From an uncultured Candidatus Saccharibacteria bacterium (GTDB lineage: Bacteria > Patescibacteriota > Minisyncoccia > Phycocordibacterales > UBA6899), in assembly GCA_964515375.1 (NCBI GenBank), contig CAZERF010000005.1, forward strand, positions 22,482 through 86,481: a stretch of DNA of 64,000 nt, given 5' to 3'. Of the stretch, positions 5,302 through 46,505 are shown piece after piece. The stretch's first letter is position 1; each line of letters starts with the position of its first letter. The notes beneath the pieces were generated by a model. The model was not told the DNA's origin. It searched no databases and saw only the letters and a program-made list of their open reading frames with translations. A program made the position numbers and the translations under genes.

Positions 5302-5572
5302 AGCGAGGCGGGTCGCGTCGGTATCTTGCTCATCAAGAGCCCGAACCCGATCACGATTCCCGACAAAAACCGCAGGACGAAATGCGTTGTGAAACGCCGA
5401 TATGGCAATCCTGGCGACACGGTCAAAAAAAACGCGACTTCATGGATACTTCCCCCTTCAAAGAACTCTACTCATTACTCTAGCACCCGGAAAGACTTGT
5501 GGCGAAAAAATTCTTGCGTCTTTGCCGGAAAATCAGTAAAACACTCAATCCCCATCCGACTTCCGCCGACTC

Positions 5573-5581
5573 TGCTATAAT
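5573..5581 (+). promoter_or_regulatory. Extended -10 TGcTATAAT 7 nt upstream of the dnaE ATG (leaderless-type)
   Basis: gactcTGCTATAATagtgcgcATG. Confidence 0.5.
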
Positions 5582-5588
5582 AGTGCGC

Positions 5589-8500
5589 ATGAGTGAGGAA
5601 GTTCAAAAAACAGAGACAAAATTCGTTCACCTCCATACCCACACCCACTATTCCCTGCTTGACGGACTCTCAAAGCCGCATGAACTCGTCAAGATCGCGA
5701 AGGAAGAAGGCATGTCCGCGATCGCGATCACCGACCACGGCGCGATGTATGGAGTCATTGACTTCTACCAGGCCTGCAAAAAAGCAGAGGTCAAACCGAT
5801 CATCGGTATCGAGGCCTATGTCGCCAACCGCACGCGCTTTGACAAAGAACCAGGGATCGACAACAAGCGCTTCCACCTGACCCTTCTTGCCGAGAACATG
5901 ACGGGGTACAAGAACCTCATCAAACTCACCACCGCGGCGAACCTCGAAGGCTACTACTACAAACCCCGCATGGACAAAGACCTCTTACGCACGCATGCGG
6001 AAGGGATCATCGCGCTCTCGGGCTGCCCCGCGGGTGAGCTCGGCCGCGCGATCCTACGCGAACAAGACATGGATCATGCAAAAGAGATCATCGCCGAATA
6101 TCAGGAGATCTTCGGAAAAGAAAATTACTTCCTTGAGATCATGTGGCACGAGGATGTCGAAGGATTCGAGCAGTGGAAAAAAGCACTCATCGCCCTTTCA
6201 AGAGAAACCGGTGTTCCCCTCGTCGCAACACAAGACTCCCACTACCCCACGCTCGATCACGCCAAGGCACACCAAACACTCCTTGCGGTCTCGACCGGTT
6301 CCGATCTTGGCGAATCGGGTATCTTCCAAGGGGGTGGACGCTATCACTTCATGGGAGGTGAGGAAGCAATGACGCTCTTCCATGAGATCCCCGAAGCAGT
6401 CACCAATACCGTCATGATCGCAGATCGCTGCAATGTCGAACTCACACTGGGTAAATTTGTCTTTCCCGACTTCGATCTCCCCCCCGGAGTGACCGCAGAT
6501 GACGCGCTCGCCGAACTCACCACAAAAGGCATGAAGGAGCGAGGACTTTCAGGGGAAGAAGTTGAGGAGCGCCGTCGATACGAACTCGAGGTCATTAAAA
6601 ACAAAGGATATTCACCGTATTTTCTCGTCGTCGCCGACCTTCTTCGTTTTGCAAAAGAAGTCGGGATCTACACCACCGTCCGAGGGTCCGCCGCAGGATC
6701 GTTCGTTGCGTACCTTGCGGGGATCACCAACGTCAACCCGATCGAATTTCAACTTCCGTTCGAACGCTTCTTGAACCCCTTTCGACCCTCCGCGCCCGAT
6801 ATCGATATGGACTTCGCGGATAACCGTCGTGAAGAGGTGATCGAATATGCAAAACGCAAATATGGCGCCGACAAGGTGGCGCAGATCGGGACCTTCGGCA
6901 CAATGATGGCACGTGGTGCAGTACGCGATGTCGCCCGCGCGCTCGGCAAACCCTACGATGTCGGCGACCGCATCTCCAAGATGATCCCAATGGGCTCGCA
7001 AGGATTCCCAATGACGATCGACCACGCCATGGAACTCGAACCGGACCTGAAGAAAGTATATGACACGGAGCACGAAGCACGAGAGATCCTCGACATCGCG
7101 CGCAAGCTTGAAGGGACCGTACGGCATGTCTCGGTCCACGCGGCAGGAGTCGTGATCGCACCAAAGCCACTCGTCGAGTATGTCCCAACCCAGTTTGACC
7201 CCAAGGGTGGCAAACTCATCACGCAGTACGATATGTATACGGTCGGTGAGGACGGCGTTGGCCTCACCAAACTCGACTTCCTCGGGATCAGAAATCTTGC
7301 GATCTTGGGTGACGCGGTGCGACTCGTCAAAAAACATCGCAACATCGATATTGAGATCGAGAAGATCGACTTTGCCGACAAGAAAACATTTGCCATGCTT
7401 GCACGCGGTGAGACCGAAGGACTCTTTCAGTTGAACGGGAGCGGCATGACGAAACATTTGACAGAACTCCATCCCACGACCGTTCATGATATCAACGCCA
7501 TGGTGGCACTCTATCGCCCCGGACCGATGAACAATATTCCCGAATACATCGCGCGTAAACAGGGCAAGAAACGAATCACCTATTTTCACCCGAAAGCGGA
7601 AAAATTCCTCGCAAAATCCTATGGCGTGCTCGTCTATCAAGATGATCTTCTCTATACCGCACTCGAACTCGCCGGATACAACTGGGAATCCGTCGACAAA
7701 TTTCGCAAGGCGGTCGGAAAGAAGATCCCCGCGGAAATGGCCAAACAGCACGTTATTTTCGTCGAGGGATGCCAGTCGCACAGCAAGATGACCGCGGAGG
7801 AGGCCGAGGCGATCTGGGCACTCTTTGAACCCTTCCAAGGATACGGCTTCAACAAAGCGCACGCCGCGTGCTACGGTCGTGTCGCGTATCAGACCGCATT
7901 CATGAAGGCGAACTTTCCCGCCGAATATATGTGCGCGGTACTCACCGCGGAGTCCGGCGACACCGAGACGATCGCAACCATGATCGGCGAGTGTAAGCGC
8001 ATGAAGATCCCGGTGCTTCCTCCCGACATCAATGCCTCCGTTGCCGACTTTACTGTCGTGAAGGGAGAGACCGAAACAGAAGACCAAATTCGTTTTGGTT
8101 TGTATACGATCAAAAATCTCGGCGAAGCGATCTCCGACGCGATCATTACGGAACGTGAAGCGAACGGACACTATCGTTCCTTCACCGAATTTCTCGAACG
8201 TGTCACACACAAAGACCTCAACAAAAAATCCATGGAAGCACTCATCAAGGCGGGGGCATTCGACTCCTTCGGCGAAGACCGCGGCGCGCTCCTGCATAAT
8301 CTCGATGATGCACTCGAGTACCACAAGGCACACGCGAGAGAGAAAGAATCCTCCCAAGTCTCACTCTTTGCCGCAGTATCCGAAACGGCGCGACTCCCCT
8401 CCTTCCGCATGCGTCCCGCACCTGAAGCATCAAAGGACGATATGCTTCGCTGGGAAAAAGAGCTCCTGGGACTCTACATTTCCGGACACCCGCTCGAGAA

Positions 8501-8810
8501 ACATCGCGAGAAGATGGAAAAGGCCGGCGTGAACATCAAGAACCTTGCGGCAAACGGCTACGAAGGGACAAACACCGTGCTTGCCGGGATCATCGAAGAG
8601 GTGCGTATCGTCATCACAAAAAAGAACGAGCACATGGCATTCGTGAAGGTCGCCGACTTTACCGGTGCGATCGAAGTTGTCTTCTTCCCTCGCACATACA
8701 CCGAATGTAAGGAGCAGATCGTCCTCGACCGCTGTATCGCAGTGAAGGGACGTTTCTCCCGTCGCAACGACTCCCCCTCTGTGGTCGCCGAGAACGTGAA
8801 GGCCCTCTAA
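5589..8810 (+). CDS. dnaE: DNA polymerase III alpha subunit
   Basis: PHP domain HLHTHTHYSLLDG. Length about 1070 aa. The ORF opens at 5499, but the start is probably MSEEVQK at 5589. Confidence 0.9.
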   Translation: MSEEVQKTETKFVHLHTHTHYSLLDGLSKPHELVKIAKEEGMSAIAITDHGAMYGVIDFYQACKKAEVKPIIGIEAYVANRTRFDKEPGIDNKRFHLTLLAENMTGYKNLIKLTTAANLEGYYYKPRMDKDLLRTHAEGIIALSGCPAGELGRAILREQDMDHAKEIIAEYQEIFGKENYFLEIMWHEDVEGFEQWKKALIALSRETGVPLVATQDSHYPTLDHAKAHQTLLAVSTGSDLGESGIFQGGGRYHFMGGEEAMTLFHEIPEAVTNTVMIADRCNVELTLGKFVFPDFDLPPGVTADDALAELTTKGMKERGLSGEEVEERRRYELEVIKNKGYSPYFLVVADLLRFAKEVGIYTTVRGSAAGSFVAYLAGITNVNPIEFQLPFERFLNPFRPSAPDIDMDFADNRREEVIEYAKRKYGADKVAQIGTFGTMMARGAVRDVARALGKPYDVGDRISKMIPMGSQGFPMTIDHAMELEPDLKKVYDTEHEAREILDIARKLEGTVRHVSVHAAGVVIAPKPLVEYVPTQFDPKGGKLITQYDMYTVGEDGVGLTKLDFLGIRNLAILGDAVRLVKKHRNIDIEIEKIDFADKKTFAMLARGETEGLFQLNGSGMTKHLTELHPTTVHDINAMVALYRPGPMNNIPEYIARKQGKKRITYFHPKAEKFLAKSYGVLVYQDDLLYTALELAGYNWESVDKFRKAVGKKIPAEMAKQHVIFVEGCQSHSKMTAEEAEAIWALFEPFQGYGFNKAHAACYGRVAYQTAFMKANFPAEYMCAVLTAESGDTETIATMIGECKRMKIPVLPPDINASVADFTVVKGETETEDQIRFGLYTIKNLGEAISDAIITEREANGHYRSFTEFLERVTHKDLNKKSMEALIKAGAFDSFGEDRGALLHNLDDALEYHKAHAREKESSQVSLFAAVSETARLPSFRMRPAPEASKDDMLRWEKELLGLYISGHPLEKHREKMEKAGVNIKNLAANGYEGTNTVLAGIIEEVRIVITKKNEHMAFVKVADFTGAIEVVFFPRTYTECKEQIVLDRCIAVKGRFSRRNDSPSVVAENVKAL

Positions 8811-8821
8811 AAACCGCGAGT

Positions 8822-8850
8822 TTGACCTCTGAACGCGCGAGCGCTATACT
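8822..8850 (+). promoter_or_regulatory. Sigma70 promoter TTGACC-N17-TATACT driving the thrS leader
   Basis: tTTGACCtctgaacgcgcgagcgcTATACT. Confidence 0.5.
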
Positions 8851-8856
8851 CAAAAA

Positions 8857-9040
8857 GTTCACGAGATCGCTTTGGCAACCAACCGAAGGCGACGGGAGAC
8901 CGTCGCGGATCACATCCCCAATCAAGAACACAACAAAGAGTCCTTGGGAATACTCAAGGAAATCGAGGTGGAACCGCGGCACATCGCTCGCCCTCGCAAG
9001 TACATGACCAACGTCGTGTTCTCGCGAGGGCGTTTTTGTT
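8857..9040 (+). promoter_or_regulatory. T-box riboswitch leader of thrS with terminator/antiterminator
   Basis: Three lines of evidence. First, T-box motif AATCGAGGTGGAACCGCGG (8961-8979) versus consensus AATTAGGGTGGTACCGCGG. Second, CGAGG (8964-8968) can pair with CCTCG (8992-8996), flanking a tggaacc bulge, as an antiterminator. Third, a competing 9-bp terminator cgccctcgc (8989-8997) / gcgagggcg (9024-9032) followed by TTTTT. Confidence 0.6.
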
Positions 9041-9084
9041 CCCCCTTCGACACTGTTCGCATTATTCATTCATTACCACACATC

Positions 9085-10827
9085 ATGGCAACACTCGACG
9101 AAAAGCGTCACACGCTCGCACATCTCCTGGCATCGGCAGCAAAAGTATTCGATCCGAAGGTCAAACTCGGCATCGGTCCGACCACAGACGACGGATTTTA
9201 CTACGATATGCAGTTCTCAAAAATTCCGACACCGGAGGACCTCAAGGAAATAGAGCGCGCGATGCGCAAACTCGTGAACAAGAAACTTCCGATGGAAGGA
9301 CGCGAGATCACCAAGAGCGAAGGCGAGACGATCTTTGCCGACCAACCCTTCAAACTCGAACTCTTGAGCGAATATGCCGACACAAAGAAGACTCTCACGG
9401 CATACACCGTCGGCGAATTCACCGACCTCTGCAAGGGAGGCCATGCGGAGAATACGGGAGATATCGACCCTGACTCTTTTGCCCTCTCTCGTATTGCCGG
9501 GGCGTACTGGCGCGGTGACGAAAAGAACCCCATGCTCACGCGCATCTACGGACTCGCATTTGAGACAGGCGCGGACCTCACCGAACACCTCCGCATGCTC
9601 GAGGAGGCCAAGAAACGCGACCATCGCAAGCTCGGCAAGGAGCTCGGACTCTTTGTCTTCTCCGATCTCGTCGGCCCCGGACTTCCGCTATGGACACCAA
9701 AGGGAACCATTATGCGCGAAGTATTGAATGACTTCGTGTGGGAACTGCGCAAGGCAAAAGGATATCAGAAAGTGACGATCCCGCACATCACCAAACGTGA
9801 TCTCTATGAAACAAGCGGACATTGGACCAAATATGCCGACGATCTTTTCAAGGTCTCAACGCGAGAAAAGAAAGAATACGCAATGAAACCAATGAACTGC
9901 CCTCATCACACACAGATCTTTGCGGCAGAACCGCGCTCCTATCGCGACATGCCACAACGCTACGCCGAAACGACGATGGTCTATCGCGACGAGCAGTCCG
10001 GCGAGCTCTCGGGGCTCTCTCGTGTTCTCTCTATCACTCAAGACGACGCGCATGTCTTTTGTCGTGAAAATCAGATCGAGCAGGAAGTCTTCGCGATCTG
10101 GGATATCATTGATCGTTTCTATGGAACATTCGGCTTCACCAAACTCTCCGTACGCTTCTCGCGCCATGACCCCGAAGAGTTCCAAAAATATCTCGGAACA
10201 AAAGAAACATGGCAAAAGGCTGAGAGTGCCATTCTTGCACTCATGAAAAAACGCGGTATCGATGATTATATCGACGGCAAGGGCGAGGCGGCGATCTATG
10301 GACCAAAGATCGATTTCATTGCCAAAGATTCCATCGGTCGCACGCAACAGATCGCCACGATCCAGCTCGACTTCATTCAGCCCGAAAACTTCGGACTTGT
10401 CTGCGCAAATGAAAAGGGTGAGAAGGAACGCATCGTTATGATCCACTGTGCGATCATGGGCTCGATCGAACGTTTCCTCTCCGTCATGATCGAACACTTG
10501 GCCGGCAACTTCCCGCTCTGGCTCGCGCCGGTCCAGGTCGCGATCCTTCCGATCGGAGAAGCTCATCACGCTTTCGCAAAGGAGGTCGACGAGCGACTCC
10601 GCGCCGTAGATATTCGCACCGCGCTTCACCTCGAAAGCGACTCGCTCGGCAAGAAGATCCGCGACGTAAAGTCCTCCAAGATTCCCTACTCGCTCGTGAT
10701 CGGCGACGCCGAAGTTGCCGCAGGAGAAGCGACACTCGAGAGTCGCGATCAAGGCAAGATCGGAGCGCTTCCGATCGATGTCCTTGTTGAACGTCTTCAC
10801 AAAGAGAACTCAGAACGAACGCTCTGA
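9085..10827 (+). CDS. thrS: Threonyl-tRNA synthetase
   Basis: Class II aaRS motifs, MNCPHHTQIF, C-terminal anticodon-binding domain. The ORF opens at 8872 but overlaps the leader, so the start is likely MATLDEKRHT at 9085. Ends TGA. Confidence 0.9.
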   Translation: MATLDEKRHTLAHLLASAAKVFDPKVKLGIGPTTDDGFYYDMQFSKIPTPEDLKEIERAMRKLVNKKLPMEGREITKSEGETIFADQPFKLELLSEYADTKKTLTAYTVGEFTDLCKGGHAENTGDIDPDSFALSRIAGAYWRGDEKNPMLTRIYGLAFETGADLTEHLRMLEEAKKRDHRKLGKELGLFVFSDLVGPGLPLWTPKGTIMREVLNDFVWELRKAKGYQKVTIPHITKRDLYETSGHWTKYADDLFKVSTREKKEYAMKPMNCPHHTQIFAAEPRSYRDMPQRYAETTMVYRDEQSGELSGLSRVLSITQDDAHVFCRENQIEQEVFAIWDIIDRFYGTFGFTKLSVRFSRHDPEEFQKYLGTKETWQKAESAILALMKKRGIDDYIDGKGEAAIYGPKIDFIAKDSIGRTQQIATIQLDFIQPENFGLVCANEKGEKERIVMIHCAIMGSIERFLSVMIEHLAGNFPLWLAPVQVAILPIGEAHHAFAKEVDERLRAVDIRTALHLESDSLGKKIRDVKSSKIPYSLVIGDAEVAAGEATLESRDQGKIGALPIDVLVERLHKENSERTL

Positions 10828-10841
10828 AACATCTTCTCTCG

Positions 10842-10878
10842 CAAAAAAAACACCCGCGTAATGCGGGTGTTTTTTGCG
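10842..10878. terminator. Bidirectional rho-independent terminator between thrS and gyrB
   Basis: A8-cacccgc-gtaat-gcgggtg-T6. Confidence 0.7.
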
Positions 10879-10894
10879 AACAAGAGGCCACGAA

Positions 10895-12967
10895 TCACAC
10901 GTCCAAGCTTGCGTACTTTGCGTTAGACTGAATGAAACTTTTGCGCGGGGCAACCTCAGTTCCCATCAAAAGATCGAAAACAATATCGGCATCCTGAGCA
11001 TCCTCGACTGCAACTTGTTTCAAGATACGATTACCCGGATCCATTGTCGTTTCCCACAACTCTTCGGGATTCATCTCTCCAAGACCCTTGTAGCGTTGAA
11101 TATGAAGCTTTGCGGCCTTCTTTGCCTTGATCTCTTCTTTTTCCTCCTCTTCCACGGGCTCATCACCACTCTCTCCTTCCGCTCCTTCAACCTCAAGCTC
11201 CGACATGTCGATTCCCTGCTCCTTCAAGAAGGTGTTCTTCTGCTCGTCGGAATAGAAGTAATGCGTCTCCTTGCCTTGTTTGACCTTGTAGAGTGGCGGC
11301 TGGGCGATATAGACATGCCCTGCCTCGATGACCGGTCGGAAGTAACGATAGAACAATGTAAGCAAGAGGGTACGAATATGTTCTCCATCAACATCGGCAT
11401 CGGTTGCAATGATGATCTTGTGGTACCGCAACTTCGCGATATCAAAGACATCACCGATCGCAGTGCCGAGCGCGATCACGAGCGCCTTCACTTCATTCGA
11501 AGCAAGCATCTTGTCGAGACGCGCACGTTCCACATTCAATATCTTTCCCTTGAGCGGGAGGATCGCCTGCGTGCGACGGTCGCGACCCTGTTTTGACGAG
11601 CCACCGGCGGAGTCTCCCTCGACGATGAAGAGTTCGGATTCTTCGGCGCTACGACTTTGACAGTCCGCAAGCTTTCCAGGAAGCGTGAGCCCGTCGAGCA
11701 CCCCCTTACGAAGCACAGAATCCTTTGCCGCTTTCGCCGCCTTGCGCGCCTTGAGCGCGATCACAACCTTTTGAATGATCGCCTTGGCGTCGTCGGGATG
11801 CTCTTCCAGATACATAGCAAAAGCAGAACCGAACACCGCCTCAGTTGCACCGCGTGCCTCCACCGATCCAAGCTTCGCCTTGGTCTGACCCTCGAACTGG
11901 ATCTCCGGCATCTTGATCGAAATGACCACGGTCAGCCCTTCACGAACATCATCCCCCGTAAAGCTCTCATCCGCATCCTTTGCAAGACCGTTTCGCTTTG
12001 CGTAATCATTCAAGGTTCGCGTGAGCGCGGTGCGAAAGCCCGTTACATGCATACCCCCTTCGGAGTTGTAGGTATCATTGGCAAACGCGATCTCACGCGA
12101 CGAAATATCATCGATATACTGCAATGCCACCTCGACACTTACATTCCCCTCCTGCTTGTCGACATAAAAGATCTCCTTGTGGATGGGTTTCTGGAACTTG
12201 TTGTAGAATTTGATGAGCGAATACAACCCCCCCTCAAAGAAGAAGGAAGTGGAGGGGACATTGTACCCCGCGTCCTTGAGGTAAAAATTATTGTCGACAT
12301 CGATCTTGCCCGTGTAGTCTCGGAGGTCCAAGATGTTGATCTCGACACCCTTCACGAGATATGCCTGCTGACGCAAATGCGCGACGATCTGATTCCAGTT
12401 GAACTTGATCTCACTGAAGATCTCGGGATCGGGATCAAAGAGTACGATCGTTCCGCGCATGTCCGAGCTTGCCACACGCTTCACCTTTGCCTTCTGTTTT
12501 CCTCGCACATAATCTTGCATATGCGCACCTCCGTCACGATGAACGATCACTTTTGCGTATTGAGAAAGCGCGTTCACCACAGAAGCACCGACACCATGAA
12601 GGCCTCCGGAGACCTTGTATCCGCTCCCTTCGCCACCAAACTTTCCTCCCGCGTGAAGCGTGGTCATAACCGTCTCGAGCGCGGAAACCTTTGTGGTCTT
12701 GTGCACCTCAACAGGAATACCGCGACCATTGTCGACCACTCGTACCTGATTGCCGGGAAGGAACGCAACCTCAATCCGCGAGCAGTGTCCGCCCATCGCC
12801 TCGTCGCGCGAATTGTCGAAGATCTCCCAGATCAAATGATGAAGCCCCTCCACGCCCGTCGACCCGATATACATTCCGGGACGCTTCCGTACCGGCTCAA
12901 GCCCCTCGAGCACCTGGATCGCCTCCGCCCCGTATCCTTTTGTCTCTTTTTCGTTATTCTTTGCCAT
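10895..12967 (-). CDS. gyrB: DNA gyrase subunit B
   Basis: GHKL ATPase (GLHGVGASVVNALS), TOPRIM, C-terminal ...YASLDV. Confidence 0.95.
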   Translation of the reverse strand: MAKNNEKETKGYGAEAIQVLEGLEPVRKRPGMYIGSTGVEGLHHLIWEIFDNSRDEAMGGHCSRIEVAFLPGNQVRVVDNGRGIPVEVHKTTKVSALETVMTTLHAGGKFGGEGSGYKVSGGLHGVGASVVNALSQYAKVIVHRDGGAHMQDYVRGKQKAKVKRVASSDMRGTIVLFDPDPEIFSEIKFNWNQIVAHLRQQAYLVKGVEINILDLRDYTGKIDVDNNFYLKDAGYNVPSTSFFFEGGLYSLIKFYNKFQKPIHKEIFYVDKQEGNVSVEVALQYIDDISSREIAFANDTYNSEGGMHVTGFRTALTRTLNDYAKRNGLAKDADESFTGDDVREGLTVVISIKMPEIQFEGQTKAKLGSVEARGATEAVFGSAFAMYLEEHPDDAKAIIQKVVIALKARKAAKAAKDSVLRKGVLDGLTLPGKLADCQSRSAEESELFIVEGDSAGGSSKQGRDRRTQAILPLKGKILNVERARLDKMLASNEVKALVIALGTAIGDVFDIAKLRYHKIIIATDADVDGEHIRTLLLTLFYRYFRPVIEAGHVYIAQPPLYKVKQGKETHYFYSDEQKNTFLKEQGIDMSELEVEGAEGESGDEPVEEEEKEEIKAKKAAKLHIQRYKGLGEMNPEELWETTMDPGNRILKQVAVEDAQDADIVFDLLMGTEVAPRKSFIQSNAKYASLDV

Positions 12968-13362: not shown

Positions 13363-13371
13363 ATCACAAAA

Positions 13372-13400
13372 AAGGCCTCCGTGGTAAACACGGAGGCCTT
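13372..13400. terminator. Bidirectional terminator (serves pheT on the minus strand)
   Basis: aggcctccgtg-gtaaa-cacggaggcct, with TTTTTTGT on the minus strand. Confidence 0.6.
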
Positions 13401-13422
13401 TCCTGTATCTCTTATCCCATGA

Positions 13423-15378
13423 TCACGCGCGAACCTGCCAAGACGGCTGTGCCATGCGCAATGCGTCAACGACACGATCAGAAACACTGTTGGCCTCGTC
13501 GTCAGAAAGCGTCCGCTCGTCGGACTGCAGGAGCATACGAAACGCGAATGACTTGCGCGACTGCTCGGGTTGCTCAAAGACATCGATAAGGGTGAGGGCG
13601 CGAACCAGTGGACCCATCACATGACGGATCACCGTTTCAACCTCACGTGCGCGGGTCTCGATCGGAACAAAAAGAGACACATCACGAACCACCGACGGAT
13701 ACCGAGACGGCATCTTGAAAATGATCCGGTCGTCTGCACGTGCGACAAGGAGACTCATGTCAAGCTCAAGTCCGTTTAGGGTCATCGTACCGAGCACCTC
13801 ATCACCGACCATGATACTTGCGACAAGTTCTCCTCCCGCTTCTTCGAAATAAACACCAGAAACACCAAGCTCTTGAGTTATCGCCTCAATGACCCCCTTC
13901 AATACAAAAAAGTCCCGCTTCTGTTCTGACTCCTTGCGCTTGTGAAAGCCCATGCATATTGCAAAGGAACTTTCTTCAAGGAGCATCCCCTTTTCCCTTC
14001 CGAAGATGTGTCCAAACTCGAAGATACGGACATCGGAAGTATGCTTGAGGTTCTCGGCTACCGCACTCTTGAGTCCCGTCATAAGCGTGTTGCGAAGATA
14101 CTTCTTGTCCGCGGCAATCGGATTTGCAACCTCTATCTCACCCTTACCCATGAAGGCGTAGGTATAGACCTCGGAGAACCCCGCGCCAACCAGAATCGCG
14201 CGCATCAAGTCACGCACACGCCACTCGCGAGAAACGACAGGAGTTCCCGAGGTTTCGACCGGGAGCGTCGGAGTCAAGCGATGATACCCCATGAGTCGCC
14301 CCACCTCTTCGGCAAGATCCTCCGTGATGCGCAGATCGAGTCGTGGAGCAGGTATTGAAAGTGTGAACCGCGCCCCCCCTTCTTCCTGCTTTTTTATTGC
14401 GGGAATACCGAGACGCTTCCACACGCGCAGAACCTCACTTGCTGAAAAGTCGGTCCCGAGTATCCGATTGATCTCATCCGGAGTCACAGCGAGTGTGACC
14501 GGTCGTTCCTTTTTAGGATAGATGTCCACCACTCCGCCAACACGAGTTGAGGTTCCTCCTGCAAGTGAGAGAATGAGTGTCGCAACCTCAAGCAGCGCAG
14601 GAAGTGTCGCTTCGGACGTTCTCCCGGACTCGAAACGTTTTGATGCGTCGGTCTTGATCCCTAATCGCTGTGCGGTCATACGAATAGTACTTGCGTCAAA
14701 GTTCGCGGATTCGATAATGATCGTCGACGTAGCCATATCCACCTCCGCCCTTGTACCCCCCTTGATCCCGGCAAGCGCAAGCGGTGCTTCCTTGTCAGCA
14801 ATGACCATGATCGAAGGATCGAGCGAGACATACTTTCCGTCGAGTGTCGTCAAGGTCTCGGCCTCCTTTGCGGGGCGAACAATGATCGCACTCCCCGCAA
14901 CTTTTGCCTGATCGAACGCATGGAGGGGTTGCCCAGTCCGAAACATCACATAGTTTGTCGCATCCACGATATTGTTGATCGAACGCTGCCCCAATGTCTC
15001 AAGCGCCTCACGAAGCCATTTGGGAGAAGGACCGACTTTGATGCCTTGAATGATCACGCCCGAGTAGCGATGCGCGCGGGGATCACGGATCGTGACCGAG
15101 AGTTTTGGCACCTGCGCGGACGAACGAGGAAGTTTTGCTGTAGGAATACGCTTAAGCGGGAGTTCAAGTATTGCGGCAACCTCTCGAGCAACGCCCTCAT
15201 GAGAGAGGCAATCGTGCGTCCGATTAGGAAGCACCTTAAGATCGATCACAATATCACCTTTCACCTTGACGATCTCTTCGATCTCAAAGGCGTGAAAGGT
15301 CAGTGCCTCTCCCAACTTCTCGGGTTTTGGAAGCGGTGAGGCAAAATAAGACTGGAGCAGTTTGTATGAGATAAGCAT
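13423..15378 (-). CDS. pheT: Phenylalanyl-tRNA synthetase beta subunit (short form, 651 aa)
   Basis: B3/4 and B5 domain similarity (QPLHAFD..., LREALETLG). Lacks the N-terminal tRNA-binding domain. Confidence 0.9.
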   Translation of the reverse strand: MLISYKLLQSYFASPLPKPEKLGEALTFHAFEIEEIVKVKGDIVIDLKVLPNRTHDCLSHEGVAREVAAILELPLKRIPTAKLPRSSAQVPKLSVTIRDPRAHRYSGVIIQGIKVGPSPKWLREALETLGQRSINNIVDATNYVMFRTGQPLHAFDQAKVAGSAIIVRPAKEAETLTTLDGKYVSLDPSIMVIADKEAPLALAGIKGGTRAEVDMATSTIIIESANFDASTIRMTAQRLGIKTDASKRFESGRTSEATLPALLEVATLILSLAGGTSTRVGGVVDIYPKKERPVTLAVTPDEINRILGTDFSASEVLRVWKRLGIPAIKKQEEGGARFTLSIPAPRLDLRITEDLAEEVGRLMGYHRLTPTLPVETSGTPVVSREWRVRDLMRAILVGAGFSEVYTYAFMGKGEIEVANPIAADKKYLRNTLMTGLKSAVAENLKHTSDVRIFEFGHIFGREKGMLLEESSFAICMGFHKRKESEQKRDFFVLKGVIEAITQELGVSGVYFEEAGGELVASIMVGDEVLGTMTLNGLELDMSLLVARADDRIIFKMPSRYPSVVRDVSLFVPIETRAREVETVIRHVMGPLVRALTLIDVFEQPEQSRKSFAFRMLLQSDERTLSDDEANSVSDRVVDALRMAQPSWQVRA

Positions 15379-16277: not shown

Positions 16278-19200
16278 CTAGCGTTCGATGTACTGGACGC
16301 TGGGAGGCACCCCGATGCCAGAAATGTCAAAATTTGCAAAAGAGAGTCCTGAGAGCGAGACTACTCCGCCAAACTTTCCCACCGCAGTTGGGGCAAAACG
16401 AATCACGATCGTTGTGTTCCCTTTTGAATCAAGGTGATAAGGGCATTTCCCATTAACAAGTGGCCCGGCAGAAGAAAAAATACATCTAAACATTCCACTT
16501 GCACTGTCGACGTCAAACAATCCAAATCCAAAATCAGCTGTTCCTGTATTTTGAATGGTCATTGATTGGTCGCGATATCTATTTACAACAGTTGCAGGGA
16601 ATGTTTGCCCAGAACCTAATATTGTGATGATCGACGTGAACAAACCCTCACCGTTCAGATTCATTTCAAGGGGTCCATTTATCGTATTTACTCCGGAAAA
16701 GCGAACTGTTCCGGGAAGCGACCCCGTATCCATCGGTAAGAACCGAAGCAATACATCTTTATAATTATCCTGAGAAACCGTAAACGCACACCCTGTTGCC
16801 GCCGGTTGACATGAATACGTATCACCACCATTGGAAAAGGTAACTCCGATCGACATATTACCAACTCCCACATTCCACAAACGAACATACTTCTCTTTCT
16901 CTGAAGCAAGATTTGAAGAGCCAAAATCAAGAAAATTATAAACTTCAGTATAACTATTCGGATCATCAACGCTCGTTGGCGTCAACTTCATGATCGGTGA
17001 ATTAATACCAACACCACTGATCGAACGTGATACAGAGTTATCCTCCCCATCAAATGTAATTGATGTATTAATAGGACCCGTTGCTGAAGGATAAAACGCG
17101 AAAGTAAATGAAGTGGTTGCGCCAGGCGCAAGAGAAACGACAAAACACGGAGAAGGATCGATGCACCTAAATACGGAAGTGTTCATGTATGCATCAAGAA
17201 ATACGTATGTCGCGCGGAGACCAACATTTTTGACCTCAAAAGATTTTTCAGGTGCATCACCACCCACCCTCGTCTCGGAAAAAATATGAGTAACGGGAGT
17301 GACCTCAATATACGACGAAGCGATTGAATCCCCTTCAACGTCGTAGCGTGTTGTCTTTGTCGCATAATCTCCAAAGTGATATTGGATAGTGATTTCACCA
17401 TCAAAACCACTGGCATAATTTGGTTCAAAAGCAATTTTTGCAATACGTTCTGTGTAAGTATCATTTAGAATGAACGGTCCGCAATTCTCGAAACATCTGA
17501 ATGTACTTGTTGAAGAAGTAACTTGATACCACACAGAAGTCCCCGAACTTCCTGAGCGTGCAACCCTTAATCTCAAAGACTTATTTTGAACAGGAGTATT
17601 GTAGTAAGTTGTTCCGTAATCGATAGTTCCCGAATAGACACCCGGAGTAGGAAGAGAGTACCACCCTTCATCCTCATCCTCCGCCGATATACTTACTCCT
17701 GGATTGATGCCAGTACCTTGAAACGTAACTGATGTTCCCACAATGGTGAATGACCCCGTGTGTAGACCCAGAGAGGTGGGTTTAAACGTGAATTGTGTTG
17801 TTGTTGATTGCCCTCCCCCCAGTTCAAAAGAACAGTTCTGAGCGCAAGAAAAGGCACTCGGCGTCCCAAAACTCGCGGCTGAAAGGGAGACAGTAGTTGT
17901 TCCAACTCCAATATTTCTTATCGCGTAGGATGTTGTTGCGGTTGTATTCAGTAAAACATTACCAAAATTGATCCTCGTACCTCCTGCCGCAACAAGCAAT
18001 GGTAGATCATTACCATTGGCACTTAAACTGATGCTAACTGACGGAAGTCCAGTTGGAAACTCGTTAGTCAGAGAAGCAACCGTTGATGTTGCGCCGGCGA
18101 CAAGTGGTGAAAAATGTATTGTCCCTACGAACCTATATCCCTGCGAGGGGGTCACAGAGGCGTAATGATGACCAATACCCGACACGGAGGCTGGCTCAAA
18201 CGAGAAGCCATTGCTTGGGAGACCGAGCATCCTCCCCGAAAGATCACTCAGGGAGGCTCCGCTATTTTTCACATAAACACTGATCGAAGATGTTGCGCCC
18301 ATATTCACAATACCTGCGTCCCATGAATTCCAACAAGTGTTTGACTGATAAAGACAGACCGTGAGAACAGGGATGTCCGAAACACTCGAACGCAATTCCG
18401 TTGTTGTTCCTCTACCAACCAGTGCTGTCAAAGTTGCACGATCAACGCGCGCAGGATTCGCAGATAATGGGATAAAATAAATATAAATAGCCTTTTCTTG
18501 ACCACCCAAGAGGGAGTAACGACAACCAGATATCCCACCCTGACACGAATATTCCCCTTCACCTGGAAGCACAATAGCCCCTTCAAGGAGTCCACCACCG
18601 GAGTTTTTTACCGTCAGTATCTCTGGTCCAAAATATGGGGGGTTACCCAAATAGCCAAAGCCAAAATCTACAGGACCCGAAGGAGTGATCGTTGCCTCTG
18701 GTAACACATCTTCTCCAACCGCTCTTAGTTGTATTCGCCTTGAAACAGTAGGATTGTCACATGCATAAGGAATGTTTGCAGTACAATTAAATATCACTTC
18801 CTGGTCCCATTCACCCTCTTCCACGGGGGCGATTTTTATTGTTACAGGAACATCAGTTTGCCCGGGAGCAAGCGTATCCGCACAACCAGCAGTACAATAA
18901 AACGGTGCCGAGAGCGTCGAGATATTATAATTAAGAGACCTCAAACCAGTATTGCTTACATAAAAAGTTTTTGTCTGGACATCGCCAGTAAGAATATTAT
19001 CAAAAATAGAATCTCCGGAAGGACTCACAATAAAGCGCGGGTTGTTGGGACGATCAACAGTATACTCACGACTAAGATAGAGTTGAGCCGAATAAAAATT
19101 CTTTTCTGTGGTTGCGCAAGTCTCAGAATCAGCATAAGTAGGAGGGAGGCCCCTTTTTTCTGCGGCAAGATTGATTTGATGCTTCACAGAACAGATCTCT

Positions 19201-19640
19201 CCGCCCCAAAATTCAATTTTCATCACGTGATCCCCGTCGGCCTGCCGTCCGATATTGTACGAAAAGGTACCGACAATAGCATTGTTCGGATCAGTATTTT
19301 CGGGAAGCTCAATATGACAACCCGCAGGGGCAGGACGTTGCATGCAATCAGCATCAGAATGTTCCTTATTAGGAACCTCAAAACCATCCTGCTTCACATA
19401 AATATTTCCCACCCACAACGGAGGTAGCATAAACTCTCCCGTCACAATAACATCATCCTCAAACCTGTAATCTTGCTCTCTCGCAGGAGTGATCCATTTT
19501 GTAATAATATCTCCTTCTGCAGCAACAGCATAAGAGGGAGAAATAAGACAGAGCAGTAAAACAAAAAAGAGGAGTGAAAAGAACCTCTTACGCAATTTCC
19601 TTAGTGGCAACATAATATTCTGAGAATTAAATAAGATCAC
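16278..19640 (-). CDS. Large secreted surface protein (1120 aa) with repeated beta-sandwich-like domains bearing paired cysteines
   Basis: Signal peptide; Ser/Thr/Gly/Asn-rich. Repeats of pattern F/Y-x-C-x(2-6)-C-x-F...L.PG...F.P...G...G (for example FSCAQNCSFELGGGQ, FRCFENCGPFILND, FRCIDPSPCFVVSLAPG, YSCQPAATGCAFTVS, FRCIFSSAGPLVNGKCPYHL). Clearly lower GC than flanking genes. Confidence 0.7.
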   Translation of the reverse strand: MILFNSQNIMLPLRKLRKRFFSLLFFVLLLCLISPSYAVAAEGDIITKWITPAREQDYRFEDDVIVTGEFMLPPLWVGNIYVKQDGFEVPNKEHSDADCMQRPAPAGCHIELPENTDPNNAIVGTFSYNIGRQADGDHVMKIEFWGGEICSVKHQINLAAEKRGLPPTYADSETCATTEKNFYSAQLYLSREYTVDRPNNPRFIVSPSGDSIFDNILTGDVQTKTFYVSNTGLRSLNYNISTLSAPFYCTAGCADTLAPGQTDVPVTIKIAPVEEGEWDQEVIFNCTANIPYACDNPTVSRRIQLRAVGEDVLPEATITPSGPVDFGFGYLGNPPYFGPEILTVKNSGGGLLEGAIVLPGEGEYSCQGGISGCRYSLLGGQEKAIYIYFIPLSANPARVDRATLTALVGRGTTTELRSSVSDIPVLTVCLYQSNTCWNSWDAGIVNMGATSSISVYVKNSGASLSDLSGRMLGLPSNGFSFEPASVSGIGHHYASVTPSQGYRFVGTIHFSPLVAGATSTVASLTNEFPTGLPSVSISLSANGNDLPLLVAAGGTRINFGNVLLNTTATTSYAIRNIGVGTTTVSLSAASFGTPSAFSCAQNCSFELGGGQSTTTQFTFKPTSLGLHTGSFTIVGTSVTFQGTGINPGVSISAEDEDEGWYSLPTPGVYSGTIDYGTTYYNTPVQNKSLRLRVARSGSSGTSVWYQVTSSTSTFRCFENCGPFILNDTYTERIAKIAFEPNYASGFDGEITIQYHFGDYATKTTRYDVEGDSIASSYIEVTPVTHIFSETRVGGDAPEKSFEVKNVGLRATYVFLDAYMNTSVFRCIDPSPCFVVSLAPGATTSFTFAFYPSATGPINTSITFDGEDNSVSRSISGVGINSPIMKLTPTSVDDPNSYTEVYNFLDFGSSNLASEKEKYVRLWNVGVGNMSIGVTFSNGGDTYSCQPAATGCAFTVSQDNYKDVLLRFLPMDTGSLPGTVRFSGVNTINGPLEMNLNGEGLFTSIITILGSGQTFPATVVNRYRDQSMTIQNTGTADFGFGLFDVDSASGMFRCIFSSAGPLVNGKCPYHLDSKGNTTIVIRFAPTAVGKFGGVVSLSGLSFANFDISGIGVPPSVQYIER

Positions 19641-20182: not shown

Positions 20183-20300
20183 CATTTGAGTGTGCTCGTT
20201 CTGTGGAGCCGGCAGTCAGGCTTGAACTGACGACCTACGGTTTACAAAACCGTTGCTCTACCAACTGAGCTATGCCGGCATTACGCGAGCACACTCAAAT
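20183..20300. repeat. Perfect 16-bp inverted repeat (catttgagtgtgctcg / cgagcacactcaaatg) bracketing tRNA-Thr
   Basis: Arms at 20183-20198 and 20285-20300. The spacer contains the complete tRNA. Confidence 0.8.
20204..20280 (-). tRNA. tRNA-Thr (anticodon UGU), CCA encoded
   Basis: GCCGGCAUAGCUCAGUUGGUAGAGCAACGGUUUUGUAAACCGUAGGUCGUCAGUUCAAGCCUGACUGCCGGCUCCA folds as a cloverleaf: 7-bp acceptor stem, GCUC/GAGC D-stem, ACGGU/ACCGU anticodon stem, loop UUUGUAA, T-arm GUCAG-UUCAAGC-CUGAC. Confidence 0.9.
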
Positions 20301-43571: not shown

Positions 43572-46505
43572 TCACACCAAAAGATCACTCTTTTGCACAC
43601 CGCCGGAAAGAGTTCGCGGCTCGGTGCGCAATACCTCTTTATAAGTTCCGTCCAACTGTTTCGCCTCAACGGTAATGAAATACTCGCCGGGAGGAACAAG
43701 GAAGTAAAAGCGTCCGAACTCGTCAGCGACCGTCTTTTTCATGATCGTATTCAACCCGGGAAGCCACACCTTCACAAGAGCAAACGGAACGGGCTTGCCA
43801 GTCGCCTTGTCCTTCACGAAGGTGATCTTGTGTGTCACCTTCCACGCAAGTTGGAAGATGAGAATCGCAAGATAGATGCCAACAACAACCATATTCAAGA
43901 CTGAAGGCGTGACCAACAAAGATCCGAGCGAGAAGAGCAATCCGACATAAAAGAGAATATTGAAGATCCACAGACGAACATTCTTGCGACGCGAATAAAC
44001 CTTGAAGACTTGATCTTGATTCTTGGCAAACTCGTTCCAGTCAAACTCTACCGGATCAAGCGGAATATTGTATTGCACCACACCCCCCTCTCGGACATGG
44101 AACGGGTCACCGAAATACAAATTCTCGTAAAACTCATCACGCGCCTTCCCTTTTAATTTGTCGGAGGGGAATTTGTAGTGTGTCTTGTTGGCCTCAATGA
44201 TATATTCGCCGGGATTCAAGAAAAATCCATATCGCCCGTCGAGGTCGGTGATCGCTTCTCCCTTTGACTGTGCTCCATCGCGGATCCGAGCAAGCACGTA
44301 TGCGGGGTCAAGTGGTCGTTTCGTTACCGAGTCATACACGACACCCCACGGCTCATTCTTCTTGCGTCGAAAGATACCGGTCAAAAGTCCGAGGAATTTG
44401 AGGAGGAGGAGATAAAGGTCATAGGCCGACGCGACGTTGGTCGAAAGAAGAATGACCTGAGAGGCACCGACCGCAACGCCGACCGGCGTCGCGACAGGGG
44501 CGACAGTATTGACGGGGTTTTCGATGGTCTCGGTAACCTGCGTCACCACTTGGGCGACGGAAGGAGGGAGGATCTCGGTAAATCTGATCTCGCGGAAGAC
44601 GTCAAAGAAACCCTGGAGTTGTGTAACATTGCCACGCTCCGTATCCAAGACGCGGATCACAAAGGCGCGACTTCCCGCATCTCCGAGCCCGGGAAGGATC
44701 GCATCATAGGCGGTGCGTTCGACGTTGAGTGAAAGTAAAAATGACTGAGTCCCCTTCGCGCCGGAATTTACTGAAAGTGCGATGGTCACAATGCGCGCGG
44801 GGAGCTTTTCGACCGGAATCGAGACGAGGAGCGCGCGTTCTCCGTTCACGCGCACGACACCGTTGCGAGAAAAAAGACGTTTACGCACTTCTCCGATCTC
44901 GAAGAAATTCACATCAGAAAGCGTCAAAGAGGACACTTTCACATCAGGGGTTCCGGTCCCAACAAAGCCAATGAAGGGGTCAGTCGATGTGGGGAGTACG
45001 GGTGGCGGTATCGTAGGTGATGATGTTGACGTAGATCCGGGGATCGTTGTTGTCCCTATTCCACCTCCTCCCGGCGGAGGAGTCTCTCCACCGGGAGGAG
45101 GTGGGGGTGGTGGAGGAGGTGGTGGCGGAGGGGGTGGGGGTGGTGGCGGAGGGGGTGGTGGGTCGATCACCCCCGTCTCGGTCACACCGGAATAGATCGC
45201 GCCCGAAGAGTAATTACCCGAGGTGTCACGCGCGAACGCAGTGTAATAATACCGCGTTCCCGTCGCAAGTCCCACATCGACGACCGATGTCGCGCCTCCG
45301 TCATAAACAAGAACACCATCAAAAGGATCCACAGGATAACCGGTCGTGCCACGCACGACACGCACCGTCGCAAAATCGGAATCAAGCGGATTCACCCACG
45401 AGAGCGCGATTGAATTTAAACTTGGTGTTCCTGAAAAACTTGCAGGGTTTGCAGGCGGGGTCGTATCAGGCGGAGGCGGAGGCGTGAGTGTTCCAAACGA
45501 ACCGGTCACGGGAGCGCTCACATTCCCGGAAAAATCACTTGCGGTAAGACGGTAATAGTACAGAGTTCCCGTCGCAAGCCCACCGATACCCATCGCATGT
45601 GTTGCCCCGTAAGCGATCTCGTTCGCGATCCCGAGTCCATACACCGTTGATGTCCCCCACTCGATCGTTGCGAGTGCCGGCTCATTCGTCAAAAAACTCA
45701 CCGTTGCTGATGTGTACGTCGTACTCGCCAAAACTCCGGAGATAACAGGGGGCGTCGCGTCGATCGTTGCAAAGACCCACGAAGAGTTTCCCGCGATGCC
45801 ACCAAAGTTGTTGCCCGCCTGATCGGCAAATGTCCCTCCGTCTACAGTGACATAATACGTCGTCGCGCTTACCAAAGGAGATGGCAGTGTGATCGTCACA
45901 ATGTTGCCCGACACGCTCACTCCCGACTCCGCGACCGGGATCGTCGCGACAAGTGTATCATCGGAAAGACGGCGAACAACAACATTCCCCGACACCTTAT
46001 TCACAAGTTCGGACATAGCGATAGAGAGCGTCGTATTGAGCACCACTCCAGTTGCACCGTTGGCGGGAGAAAGGGACGAAACAGTCGGAGGATTGGTGTC
46101 GCCTCCGCCACCCCCCGAAGGCGGATCGGTCGTTGCAGAATCACCCGCCGAAGGAACGGAATAATTAAAAGAAGTATCGAAGGCGCGGATCACATATGCA
46201 TAGGTGGTATCACCCGTGAGTCCGGAATCTTGATACGAGATCGCTGTTGTCGTCGCGATCGAAATGCCGTCACGATAAACAACGTAGCCGGAAACCGAAA
46301 CATTATCGGTCGACGACGCCCACACAAGGTTGATCTGCGAAGACGACACAGCGGTCGCGGAGAGGCCGGAAGGAGCGGACGGGGGGACAACATCAGAAAG
46401 CACTGAAAGGCCGATATTGAACTGCTGAGCGGCGACAACAGACCCCGATCCAAAAAAGAACGAGAGCAAGAGGAGTATCGAAAATATACGCGTCAATATC
46501 TTCAT
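43572..46505 (-). CDS. Large surface protein: signal peptide, FN3-like repeats, 25-residue poly-proline tract, C-terminal TM segments and carboxypeptidase-regulatory-like domains
   Basis: Several FN3-type motifs (INLVWASSTDNVSVSGYVVYRDG, TTYAYVIRAFD); P25; GVVYDSVTKRPL...DGRYGF and FALVKVWLPG...GRFYFLVPPGEYFITVEA. Confidence 0.65.
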   Translation of the reverse strand: MKILTRIFSILLLLSFFFGSGSVVAAQQFNIGLSVLSDVVPPSAPSGLSATAVSSSQINLVWASSTDNVSVSGYVVYRDGISIATTTAISYQDSGLTGDTTYAYVIRAFDTSFNYSVPSAGDSATTDPPSGGGGGDTNPPTVSSLSPANGATGVVLNTTLSIAMSELVNKVSGNVVVRRLSDDTLVATIPVAESGVSVSGNIVTITLPSPLVSATTYYVTVDGGTFADQAGNNFGGIAGNSSWVFATIDATPPVISGVLASTTYTSATVSFLTNEPALATIEWGTSTVYGLGIANEIAYGATHAMGIGGLATGTLYYYRLTASDFSGNVSAPVTGSFGTLTPPPPPDTTPPANPASFSGTPSLNSIALSWVNPLDSDFATVRVVRGTTGYPVDPFDGVLVYDGGATSVVDVGLATGTRYYYTAFARDTSGNYSSGAIYSGVTETGVIDPPPPPPPPPPPPPPPPPPPPPPPGGETPPPGGGGIGTTTIPGSTSTSSPTIPPPVLPTSTDPFIGFVGTGTPDVKVSSLTLSDVNFFEIGEVRKRLFSRNGVVRVNGERALLVSIPVEKLPARIVTIALSVNSGAKGTQSFLLSLNVERTAYDAILPGLGDAGSRAFVIRVLDTERGNVTQLQGFFDVFREIRFTEILPPSVAQVVTQVTETIENPVNTVAPVATPVGVAVGASQVILLSTNVASAYDLYLLLLKFLGLLTGIFRRKKNEPWGVVYDSVTKRPLDPAYVLARIRDGAQSKGEAITDLDGRYGFFLNPGEYIIEANKTHYKFPSDKLKGKARDEFYENLYFGDPFHVREGGVVQYNIPLDPVEFDWNEFAKNQDQVFKVYSRRKNVRLWIFNILFYVGLLFSLGSLLVTPSVLNMVVVGIYLAILIFQLAWKVTHKITFVKDKATGKPVPFALVKVWLPGLNTIMKKTVADEFGRFYFLVPPGEYFITVEAKQLDGTYKEVLRTEPRTLSGGVQKSDLLV
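45080..45160. repeat. CCN/GGN microsatellite encoding P25
   Basis: Plus strand (ggn) about 27 repeats. Potential slippage-prone tract inside a surface-protein gene. Confidence 0.7.

Follow-up and report, generated by a model that had tools for sequence, protein, structure and literature searches.

In a 64,000-nt stretch of the genome of an uncultured Candidatus Saccharibacteria bacterium (hereafter the window; contig CAZERF010000005.1 of assembly GCA_964515375.1), the threonine--tRNA ligase gene thrS is preceded by a leader of about 228 nt which, judged from its sequence, very probably is a transcription attenuator that senses tRNA-Thr by the T-box mechanism with a minimal architecture. All of the mechanistic T-box features that can be assessed in sequence were found in this leader, namely the T-box bulge, a mutually exclusive terminator, a specifier codon with its adjacent purine and complementarity to the tRNA discriminator base, and on the defining features that we tested the element lies outside both the Rfam T-box model RF00230 and the class III T-boxes. 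It appears to be an undescribed architectural variant, in which an ultrashort Stem I resembling that of class III is combined with control of transcription termination.

Architecture of the thrS leader

The 3’ half of the leader holds the T-box core. The T-box sequence AATCGAGGTGGAACCGCGG, which a first-pass annotation of the window had already placed in the leader, occupies positions 8961-8979 (all leader elements lie on the forward strand), and the antiterminator proposed in the same annotation, with CGAGG and CCTCG closing around a UGGAACC bulge, was recovered at 8964-8996. Helix A1 pairs 8964-8968 with 8992-8996 (CGAGG/CCUCG), helix A2 pairs G8976-G8978 with C8989-C8991, and the 7-nt bulge UGGAACC (8969-8975) lies between the two helices, both in the alignments to RF00230 and to a family covariance model (R1, see below) and in the minimum free energy (MFE) fold. 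Structures were read from MFE folds of the full leader and of the leader cut before the 3’ strand of its terminator; the leader folds with z = -5.2 relative to 200 shuffled sequences, none of which (0/200) folded equally well. Upstream of the core, an A-rich single-stranded linker (8930-8940) has AAGAG at its end, in agreement with the purine string RRRNG described for T-boxes ahead of Stem III (TBDB, PMC7778990), and leads into Stem III (8941-8960; 8 bp with an AAUA loop, then AA), which is found in the folds as well as in the RF00230 alignment. The exact 12-mer GGTGGAACCGCG occurs a single time in the window and is not significant by itself; the significance of the leader rests on covariance models, not on this 12-mer.

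Downstream, an intrinsic terminator (8989-9037) consists of an 18-bp interrupted hairpin (8989-9032, -29.6 kcal/mol), whose G+C-rich lower stem pairs 8989-8997 with 9024-9032, followed by U5 (9033-9037). Since the 5’ strand of the terminator is the 3’ strand of the antiterminator, the two structures are mutually exclusive, as had been claimed for a 9-bp GC-rich stem and U5 ahead of thrS. The U-tract ends 47 nt upstream of the thrS ATG (9085), and the 47-nt spacer between them (9038-9084) is pyrimidine- and A-rich, with no recognisable purine-rich Shine-Dalgarno sequence in the spacer itself or in or adjoining the terminator. Because the terminator ends this far before the ATG and the spacer lacks a purine-rich Shine-Dalgarno sequence, the layout speaks for attenuation of transcription, and against a sequestered ribosome binding site, as the output of the switch. 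These observations bear on whether the leader might instead act on translation, switching ribosome access in the manner of the actinobacterial class III T-boxes. Its ultrashort Stem I and apical specifier, described below, do recall the mostly translational ileS T-boxes (PMC10482949), but in 110 of 111 family members (unique sequences among the matches listed) the competitor of the antiterminator is a strong hairpin with a U-tract behind it, and in the window this hairpin ends far from the start codon and lacks an adjoining Shine-Dalgarno sequence, making a translational switch very unlikely. The family terminators start on the antiterminator 3’ strand CGYCC and have a median of 18 bp and -29 kcal/mol, with at least four U within the next 8 nt (110/111).

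The 5’ domain, comprising the first ~73 nt, is closed by a helix, P0, which encloses Stem I and two small plain hairpins in a single junction. The P0 5’ strand (8857-8864) pairs G8857-C8860 with G8926-C8929 and, beyond a 2x2 internal loop of A8861 and C8862 opposite A8924 and A8925, G8863 with C8923 and A8864 with U8922. The 5’ junction strand GAUCG (8865-8869; family consensus GAUUG) leads into an ultrashort Stem I (8870-8888) of 6 bp, in which 8870-8875 pair with 8883-8888 under a 7-nt apical loop, CAACCAA (8876-8882). The position of Stem II is taken by a plain 7-bp hairpin (8889-8906), which has a GAGA loop and lacks an S-turn, and that of Stem IIA by a second small hairpin of 4 bp, GGAU-CAC-AUCC (8907-8917), followed by the 3’ junction strand CCAA (8918-8921; family consensus CUAA) and the P0 3’ strand (8922-8929). 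The first-pass annotation had been unable to fold Stem I or to place the Thr specifier with confidence. Its difficulty is explained, since about 20 nt replace the 88-nt Stem I of the Rfam model and no canonical Stem I is there to be folded; a foldable 6-bp hairpin with a Thr specifier nevertheless exists.

We assign the specifier to the first ACC of caACCaaccgaagg, a Thr codon (8878-8880) followed by the purine A8881 within the apical loop of Stem I, because all of the at least 120 listed relatives place a Thr codon and a purine at that conserved loop position. The ACC put forward previously (8882-8884) is the wrong triplet, as both of its C’s are paired in the stem and it is missing from relatives such as L051, L078, L033 and L024, in which the first ACC alone is retained. 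The 7-nt loop resembles an anticodon loop: most family members have U at position 2, where the window has A, and all have a purine at position 6. In Escherichia coli, the thrS operator is an mRNA hairpin that mimics the anticodon arm of tRNA-Thr and through which threonyl-tRNA synthetase (ThrRS) represses its own mRNA. A ThrRS-binding operator of this kind would account for a 7-nt loop on a short stem ahead of thrS, with its mostly-U position 2 and purine at position 6. However, what the loop presents is a codon, ACC, and none of the Thr anticodons GGU, UGU and CGU, and it thus complements the tRNA instead of imitating it; a protein operator would also leave the UGGA bulge, the antiterminator/terminator pair and the match to U73 (see below) unexplained, and we regard it as extremely improbable.

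Several modules familiar from other T-boxes were not found. The window element has no detectable long Stem I, tRNA-elbow platform or standard kink-turn (K-turn), the GA dinucleotides of the K-turn being replaced in the junction by UG (CG in the window) and AA. In the family, only 14-37 nt, folding into one or two plain mini-hairpins, separate Stem I from the 3’ junction strand, and no conserved S-turn motif was detected in this interval, where no 4-mer is shared by more than 35% of members and 7 of 109 contain AGUA. Alignment inspection, in which no dedicated pseudoknot search was run, revealed neither a conserved loop sequence or complementarity suggestive of a pseudoknot nor a partner for the hairpin at 8907-8917.

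Transcription of this leader would be driven by the promoter recognised in the first-pass annotation, TTGACC-N17-TATACT, which is indeed present as a sigma-70-type site at 8822-8850 (-35 hexamer TTGACC at 8822-8827, 17-nt spacer, -10 hexamer TATACT at 8845-8850). It is the one sigma-70-like site between 8500 and 9400, where shuffled sequences give 0.5, and the promoter of a related locus, L004, has hexamers and spacing identical to it. The transcript is expected to start near 8856-8857, about 7 nt past the -10 hexamer; counted from a start near 8857, the leader measures ~228 nt, in keeping with the previous estimate of ~230 nt. Across the family, -10-like hexamers peak 6-8 nt 5’ of P0 (73/108 members), and transcripts would therefore start essentially at P0, leaving no room for a long Stem I.

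The regulated gene, thrS (9085-10827, forward strand), encodes a 580-aa threonine--tRNA ligase that matches the TIGR00418 profile with 633.5 bits (cutoff 383.65). An alternative upstream start at 8872 had been dismissed as an artefact, with good reason: it is a TTG within the first hairpin of the leader, Stem I, the 71 extra residues that it would add run through the terminator, and the TIGR00418 alignment begins after the ATG at 9085, at residue 8 of the protein initiated there. The ThrRS homologues of the candidate phyla radiation (CPR) likewise match the window protein from residues 1-9 onward. As position 1 of the profile corresponds to residue 8 and the protein has only 580 aa, beginning at the editing domain, it appears to lack the N-terminal TGS domain present in many bacterial ThrRS.

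A family of thrS leaders with a shared structure

The closest ThrRS relatives in the genome collection are at most 65% identical to the window protein and come from metagenome-assembled Patescibacteria (CPR), including Nomurabacteria, Parcubacteria/Paceibacterota, Minisyncoccia and other lineages. Many of these CPR thrS genes have GGTGGAACCGCG 100-130 nt upstream with a strong terminator after it, and ahead of it GAGAUUG, a short stem with the loop CUACCAA, and a closing stem. Scanning metagenomes with the pattern GAGATTG-N30-60-CTAAKC-N20-50-GGTGGAACCGCG, in which the hairpin loop was left unspecified, we obtained at least 120 stretches, with 111 unique sequences among the matches listed. As the pattern fixed GAGAUUG, CUAAKC and GGUGGAACCGCG and left the loop, stems and flanks free, conservation of these three segments in the metagenome set is uninformative; in the relatives found by ThrRS homology, which form an unbiased sample, the 5’ junction strand reads GAUUG, GAUCG or AGUUG and the 3’ strand CUAA or CCAA.

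The unconstrained loop proved strongly conserved in its coding sense. A Thr codon occupies the same loop position in 120 of the 120 matches (119 ACC, 1 ACG), always followed by a purine, and the commonest loop, CUACCAA, accounts for 88 of them. No codon for another amino acid was seen among the matches listed. The sole ACG specifier, in the loop CUACGAA of L175, keeps the Thr identity and implies a different isoacceptor, with anticodon CGU. Immediately after the element, and in the same orientation, thrS follows in 108 of the 120 cases; in the remaining 12 the contig ends first. Stem III is not universal: it is missing in about half of the family (L083, L088, L090, L095, L102 and about half of L081-L200), and in these members a short A-rich linker joins the 5’ junction straight to the antiterminator, giving elements of ~100-110 nt.

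Covariation supports both helices of the 5’ domain. With the register set by the fixed sequence anchors and with a bulged GA, the three variable P0 pairs are formed in 111, 110 and 96 of the 111 unique sequences, with 4-5 pair types each; a contiguous P0 register, AGAUU/AAUCU, was rejected, as its G1-m2 pairs in only 3 of 111 sequences. From a MAFFT alignment of 55 5’ domains, made independently of any structure, RNAalifold predicts Stem I without guidance, and each of its six pairs shows compensatory double changes. RNAalifold did not recover P0, because P0 sits at the ragged ends of this alignment, where explicit counting does recover it. Across P0 and Stem I, 96.5% of the cells are paired, compared with 70.4% in shuffles and at most 37.6% with slid partners, and the covariation score is 0.744, compared with 0.226 and at most 0.113, respectively. 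When A1 and A2 are included, in 49 full-length sequences from which the window was excluded, 96.9% of cells are paired and the score is 0.615 vs 0.220; A1 itself covaries at 4 positions across the family. The shuffle control ignores phylogeny, and the slide control, which corrects for it, is equally clear.

This conservation is pertinent to the possibility that the leader has degenerated, having lost tRNA sensing together with Stem I and Stem II and kept a terminator that is constitutive or under some other control. The reduced genomes of CPR bacteria and the missing elbow platform and S-turn, the known high-affinity tRNA-binding modules, would be in line with such a loss. Yet a Thr codon with its purine and a UGGA matching U73 are kept across at least 120 divergent sequences, compensatory changes are seen in P0, Stem I and A1, and the overlap between antiterminator and terminator is exact, so that decay of the sensor seems quite improbable.

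At the Rfam gathering threshold, the sole match in the whole window is a tRNA. Under permissive filters, RF00230 matches 8852-8998 with 31.7 bits, compared with a gathering threshold of 93 (E = 2.3e-5 in a 501-nt search and 0.003 in the whole window). The first-pass annotation had tied its T-box to the presence of a match to RF00230, and such a match exists, although with a score far under the threshold. The 3’ half of the leader aligns well and 88 Stem I positions of the model are replaced by ~20 nt, the low score arising because Stem I is a 6-bp hairpin. We also built a covariance model, R1, from the 49 full-length metagenome members, again excluding the window. R1 has exactly one match in the 64-kb window, at 8858-8997 (58 bits, E about 2.5e-13), and matches 16 of 80 genome thrS loci, nine of them with at least 44 bits. 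RF00230 scores 16 other family members at 22-39 bits against its threshold of 93, and Rfam-based pipelines, including those that seed TBDB, would therefore miss the group.

These scores speak to whether the leader is simply a canonical class I T-box, like that of Bacillus subtilis thrS, with a long Stem I that is merely hard to fold by eye. Its discriminator half, consisting of Stem III, the T-box sequence, the antiterminator and the terminator, does align well to RF00230. By contrast, only ~20 nt are available where the model has its 88-nt Stem I, the -10 hexamer lies no more than 7 nt from P0, covariation backs a hairpin of 6 bp whose apical loop holds the codon, and family members score 22-39 bits where a leader with a long Stem I, in the Chloroflexi-labelled L056, reaches 84 bits. 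We therefore see next to no prospect that a hidden class I Stem I is present.

Two of the genome loci differ from the main group. L056, from a bin labelled Anaerolinea, has a thrS T-box with a long Stem I (2580-2908; RF00230 84 bits, under the threshold of 93), which begins 16 nt past a tRNA-Val(GAC) gene. In L041 (Wolfebacteria; 2207-2354; RF00230 49 bits, R1 21 bits), the thrS leader has a textbook K-turn, GAGC-GAU-GA / G-GA-GCUC, and a 4-bp Stem I with a 9-nt loop, AUUCACCAA, and may stand midway between the canonical architecture and the junction type. The main group has the same GAU as L041, followed by UG in place of GA, and two mini-hairpins precede its opposite strand, which consists of CUAA and then the 3’ strand of P0. 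Comparison of these sequences suggests that the junction could be a K-turn remodelled into a multi-helix junction.

The distribution of the element centres on CPR bacteria and thrS. Of the 16 bins matched by R1, 15 carry CPR labels or generic or doubtful ones, the exception being L056. The two closest ThrRS relatives of the window protein, L001 and L002 (62-64% identical), have no T-box detectable upstream, and the leader is patchy even within CPR, since these two and most of the 80 loci, roughly half of them CPR, are unmatched. T-boxes on other aminoacyl-tRNA synthetase genes, a possibility raised by the first-pass annotation, did not materialise: no T-box-like match was found upstream of pheT or gatB in the window (RF00230 at E up to 10; R1), and no T-box core ahead of genes other than thrS in 1.4 Mb of thrS neighbourhoods.

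Predicted recognition of tRNA-Thr

From the ACC specifier, the predicted ligand is tRNA-Thr(GGU); dnaE and thrS together use ACC for Thr more often than any other codon (43/101). In T-boxes, the N of UGGN pairs with the tRNA discriminator base (PMC7778990). The bulge reads UGGA in all members, although in the metagenome set it was fixed by the scan pattern, and UGGA is complementary to U73 of both tRNA-Thr(UGU) genes that we located. One of these lies in the window (20204-20279, reverse strand), has discriminator U73 and an encoded CCA, and is not the predicted ligand; the other, in L117 (3728-3803), has U73 and an encoded CCA as well. The discriminator of the ligand is thus deduced from the UGU isoacceptor, because tRNA-Thr(GGU) was not found in the window or in 60 related loci.

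Tying these elements to the established T-box mechanism, from which we infer tRNA binding and switching, the following course of events can be proposed. Transcription would start ~7 nt past the -10 hexamer, and the first ~73 nt would fold into the P0-closed junction, with the Stem I loop presenting the Thr codon ACC and its purine for pairing with the anticodon GGU of tRNA-Thr. If this tRNA is uncharged, its 3’ end, U73-C-C-A, would pair with the UGGA bulge and stabilise the antiterminator, and RNA polymerase would continue into thrS. With charged tRNA, or with none, the terminator, being the more stable structure, would form and transcription would stop at the U-tract, 47 nt before the ATG. 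Since the element has no long Stem I platform, standard K-turn, S-turn Stem II or visible pseudoknot, tRNA capture would have to rest on the loop-loop contact between codon and anticodon and on the acceptor-end contact, possibly assisted by the junction strands GAUYG and CYAA. Unusually stable loop-loop complexes reportedly form between two tRNAs whose anticodons are complementary (Eisinger 1971; Grosjean, Soll and Crothers 1976), and we hypothesise that such stability may partly offset the absent modules.

Several observations weigh against tRNA sensing by this leader. The window P0 carries a 2x2 internal loop, and the window junction strands, GAUCG and CCAA, depart from the family consensus. 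The RF00230 score of 31.7 bits is well under the 93-bit gathering threshold, and the window and the 60 related loci yielded tRNA-Thr(UGU), in L117 alone among the loci, with no tRNA-Thr(GGU) in any of them. Moreover, fast tRNA capture by transcriptional T-boxes generally depends on the elbow platform of a long Stem I, and truncated Stem I’s without an S-turn Stem II show barely detectable tRNA binding (PMC7583486). Neither module can be seen in this element, which may therefore need an unseen tertiary module or a protein cofactor.

Whether the family constitutes a fifth T-box class and the smallest natural tRNA-sensing switch, measuring ~100-160 nt from P0 through the antiterminator, is to our mind an evenly balanced question. 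If it does, a codon in a 7-nt loop on a P0-closed junction, together with the acceptor-end contact, may suffice for the termination decision; neither the platform rule for transcriptional T-boxes nor the S-turn rule for short Stem I’s would then be general, and the GAUYG/CYAA junction strands or a CPR-specific factor would be a new module that stabilises the anticodon contact. T-boxes serve as a model system for how one structured RNA recognises another, and this element may define the minimal needs of co-transcriptional tRNA sensing, or else reveal a compensating RNA module or protein. It is abundant, being present on at least 120 metagenome contigs and in 9-16 genome bins, nearly all CPR-labelled. 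It also joins a very short list of cis-regulatory RNAs documented for Patescibacteria, about whose gene regulation hardly anything is known. Its compactness and modularity, and the prospect of programming it by tRNA, would also make such a switch useful for engineering. We found no publication linking T-boxes to CPR, Patescibacteria, Parcubacteria or Saccharibacteria in a literature search of incomplete coverage, and prior publication is possible.

In the window, thrS and its leader are flanked by dnaE (5499-8810, forward strand) and, on the reverse strand, by gyrB (10895-12967) and pheT (13423-15378), with gatB further downstream (50144-51553, reverse strand). Weak matches below threshold to Thr_leader (13366-13425) and Leu_leader (10798-10901) are taken to be chance or intergenic hairpins. 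Two large open reading frames on the reverse strand, one encoding a protein with a choice-of-anchor D domain (16278-19640) and the other weakly similar to an exoglucanase domain (43572-46505), probably encode surface or secreted proteins unrelated to the leader.

Comparison with known T-boxes and thrS operators

T-boxes have been divided into class I, with a long Stem I bearing an elbow platform and an S-turn Stem II, and the glycine-specific class II, with a long Stem I and no Stem II, both acting on transcription; the mostly translational class III of actinobacterial ileS genes, with a short Stem I, a 5-6-nt apical specifier loop and a need for Stem II; and class IV, with an intermediate Stem I (PMC10482949). 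The class closest in its 5’ half is class III, exemplified by Nocardia farcinica and Mycobacterium tuberculosis (PDB 6UFM and 6UFG, cited in PMC7583486), whose Stem II domain of roughly 70 nt contains an S-turn (a 5-purine string) and a IIA/B pseudoknot and is needed for tRNA binding (PMC7583486). Taking the class III features from the descriptions in PMC7583486 and PMC10482949, by which the element was set apart from that class, we find that the two share a short Stem I hairpin without an elbow platform, an apical specifier followed by a purine and a bulge that senses the tRNA 3’ end. Whereas class III has a 5-6-nt loop and a standard K-turn, the present element has a 7-nt anticodon-like loop on a P0-closed junction; in place of the ~70-nt Stem II with S-turn and pseudoknot, it has 14-37 nt folded into plain mini-hairpins that share no motif; and in place of a Shine-Dalgarno sequestrator on actinobacterial ileS, it has an intrinsic terminator on thrS in Patescibacteria.

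With class I (RF00230; Bacillus subtilis tyrS and thrS), the element shares its 3’ half, that is the purine string, Stem III, AA and the 7-nt UGGNACC bulge, as well as the same logic, with an overlapping terminator and an aminoacyl-tRNA synthetase gene downstream. It differs in having none of the class I long Stem I with its K-turn, internal specifier loop, AG bulge and distal loop (the double T-loop platform), and an S-turn Stem II and pseudoknot were not seen either, the latter by inspection only. Class II glyQS, the smallest characterised transcriptional T-box, resembles it in acting on transcription termination and in having no Stem II domain, but retains a long Stem I with an elbow platform that is reportedly essential (PMC7583486), whereas the present element has no platform.

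The thrS operator of Escherichia coli likewise provides feedback control of thrS through a leader hairpin with a 7-nt loop. That hairpin, however, mimics an anticodon and binds a protein, whereas the leader described here displays a codon in its loop and carries a T-box antiterminator and a terminator.

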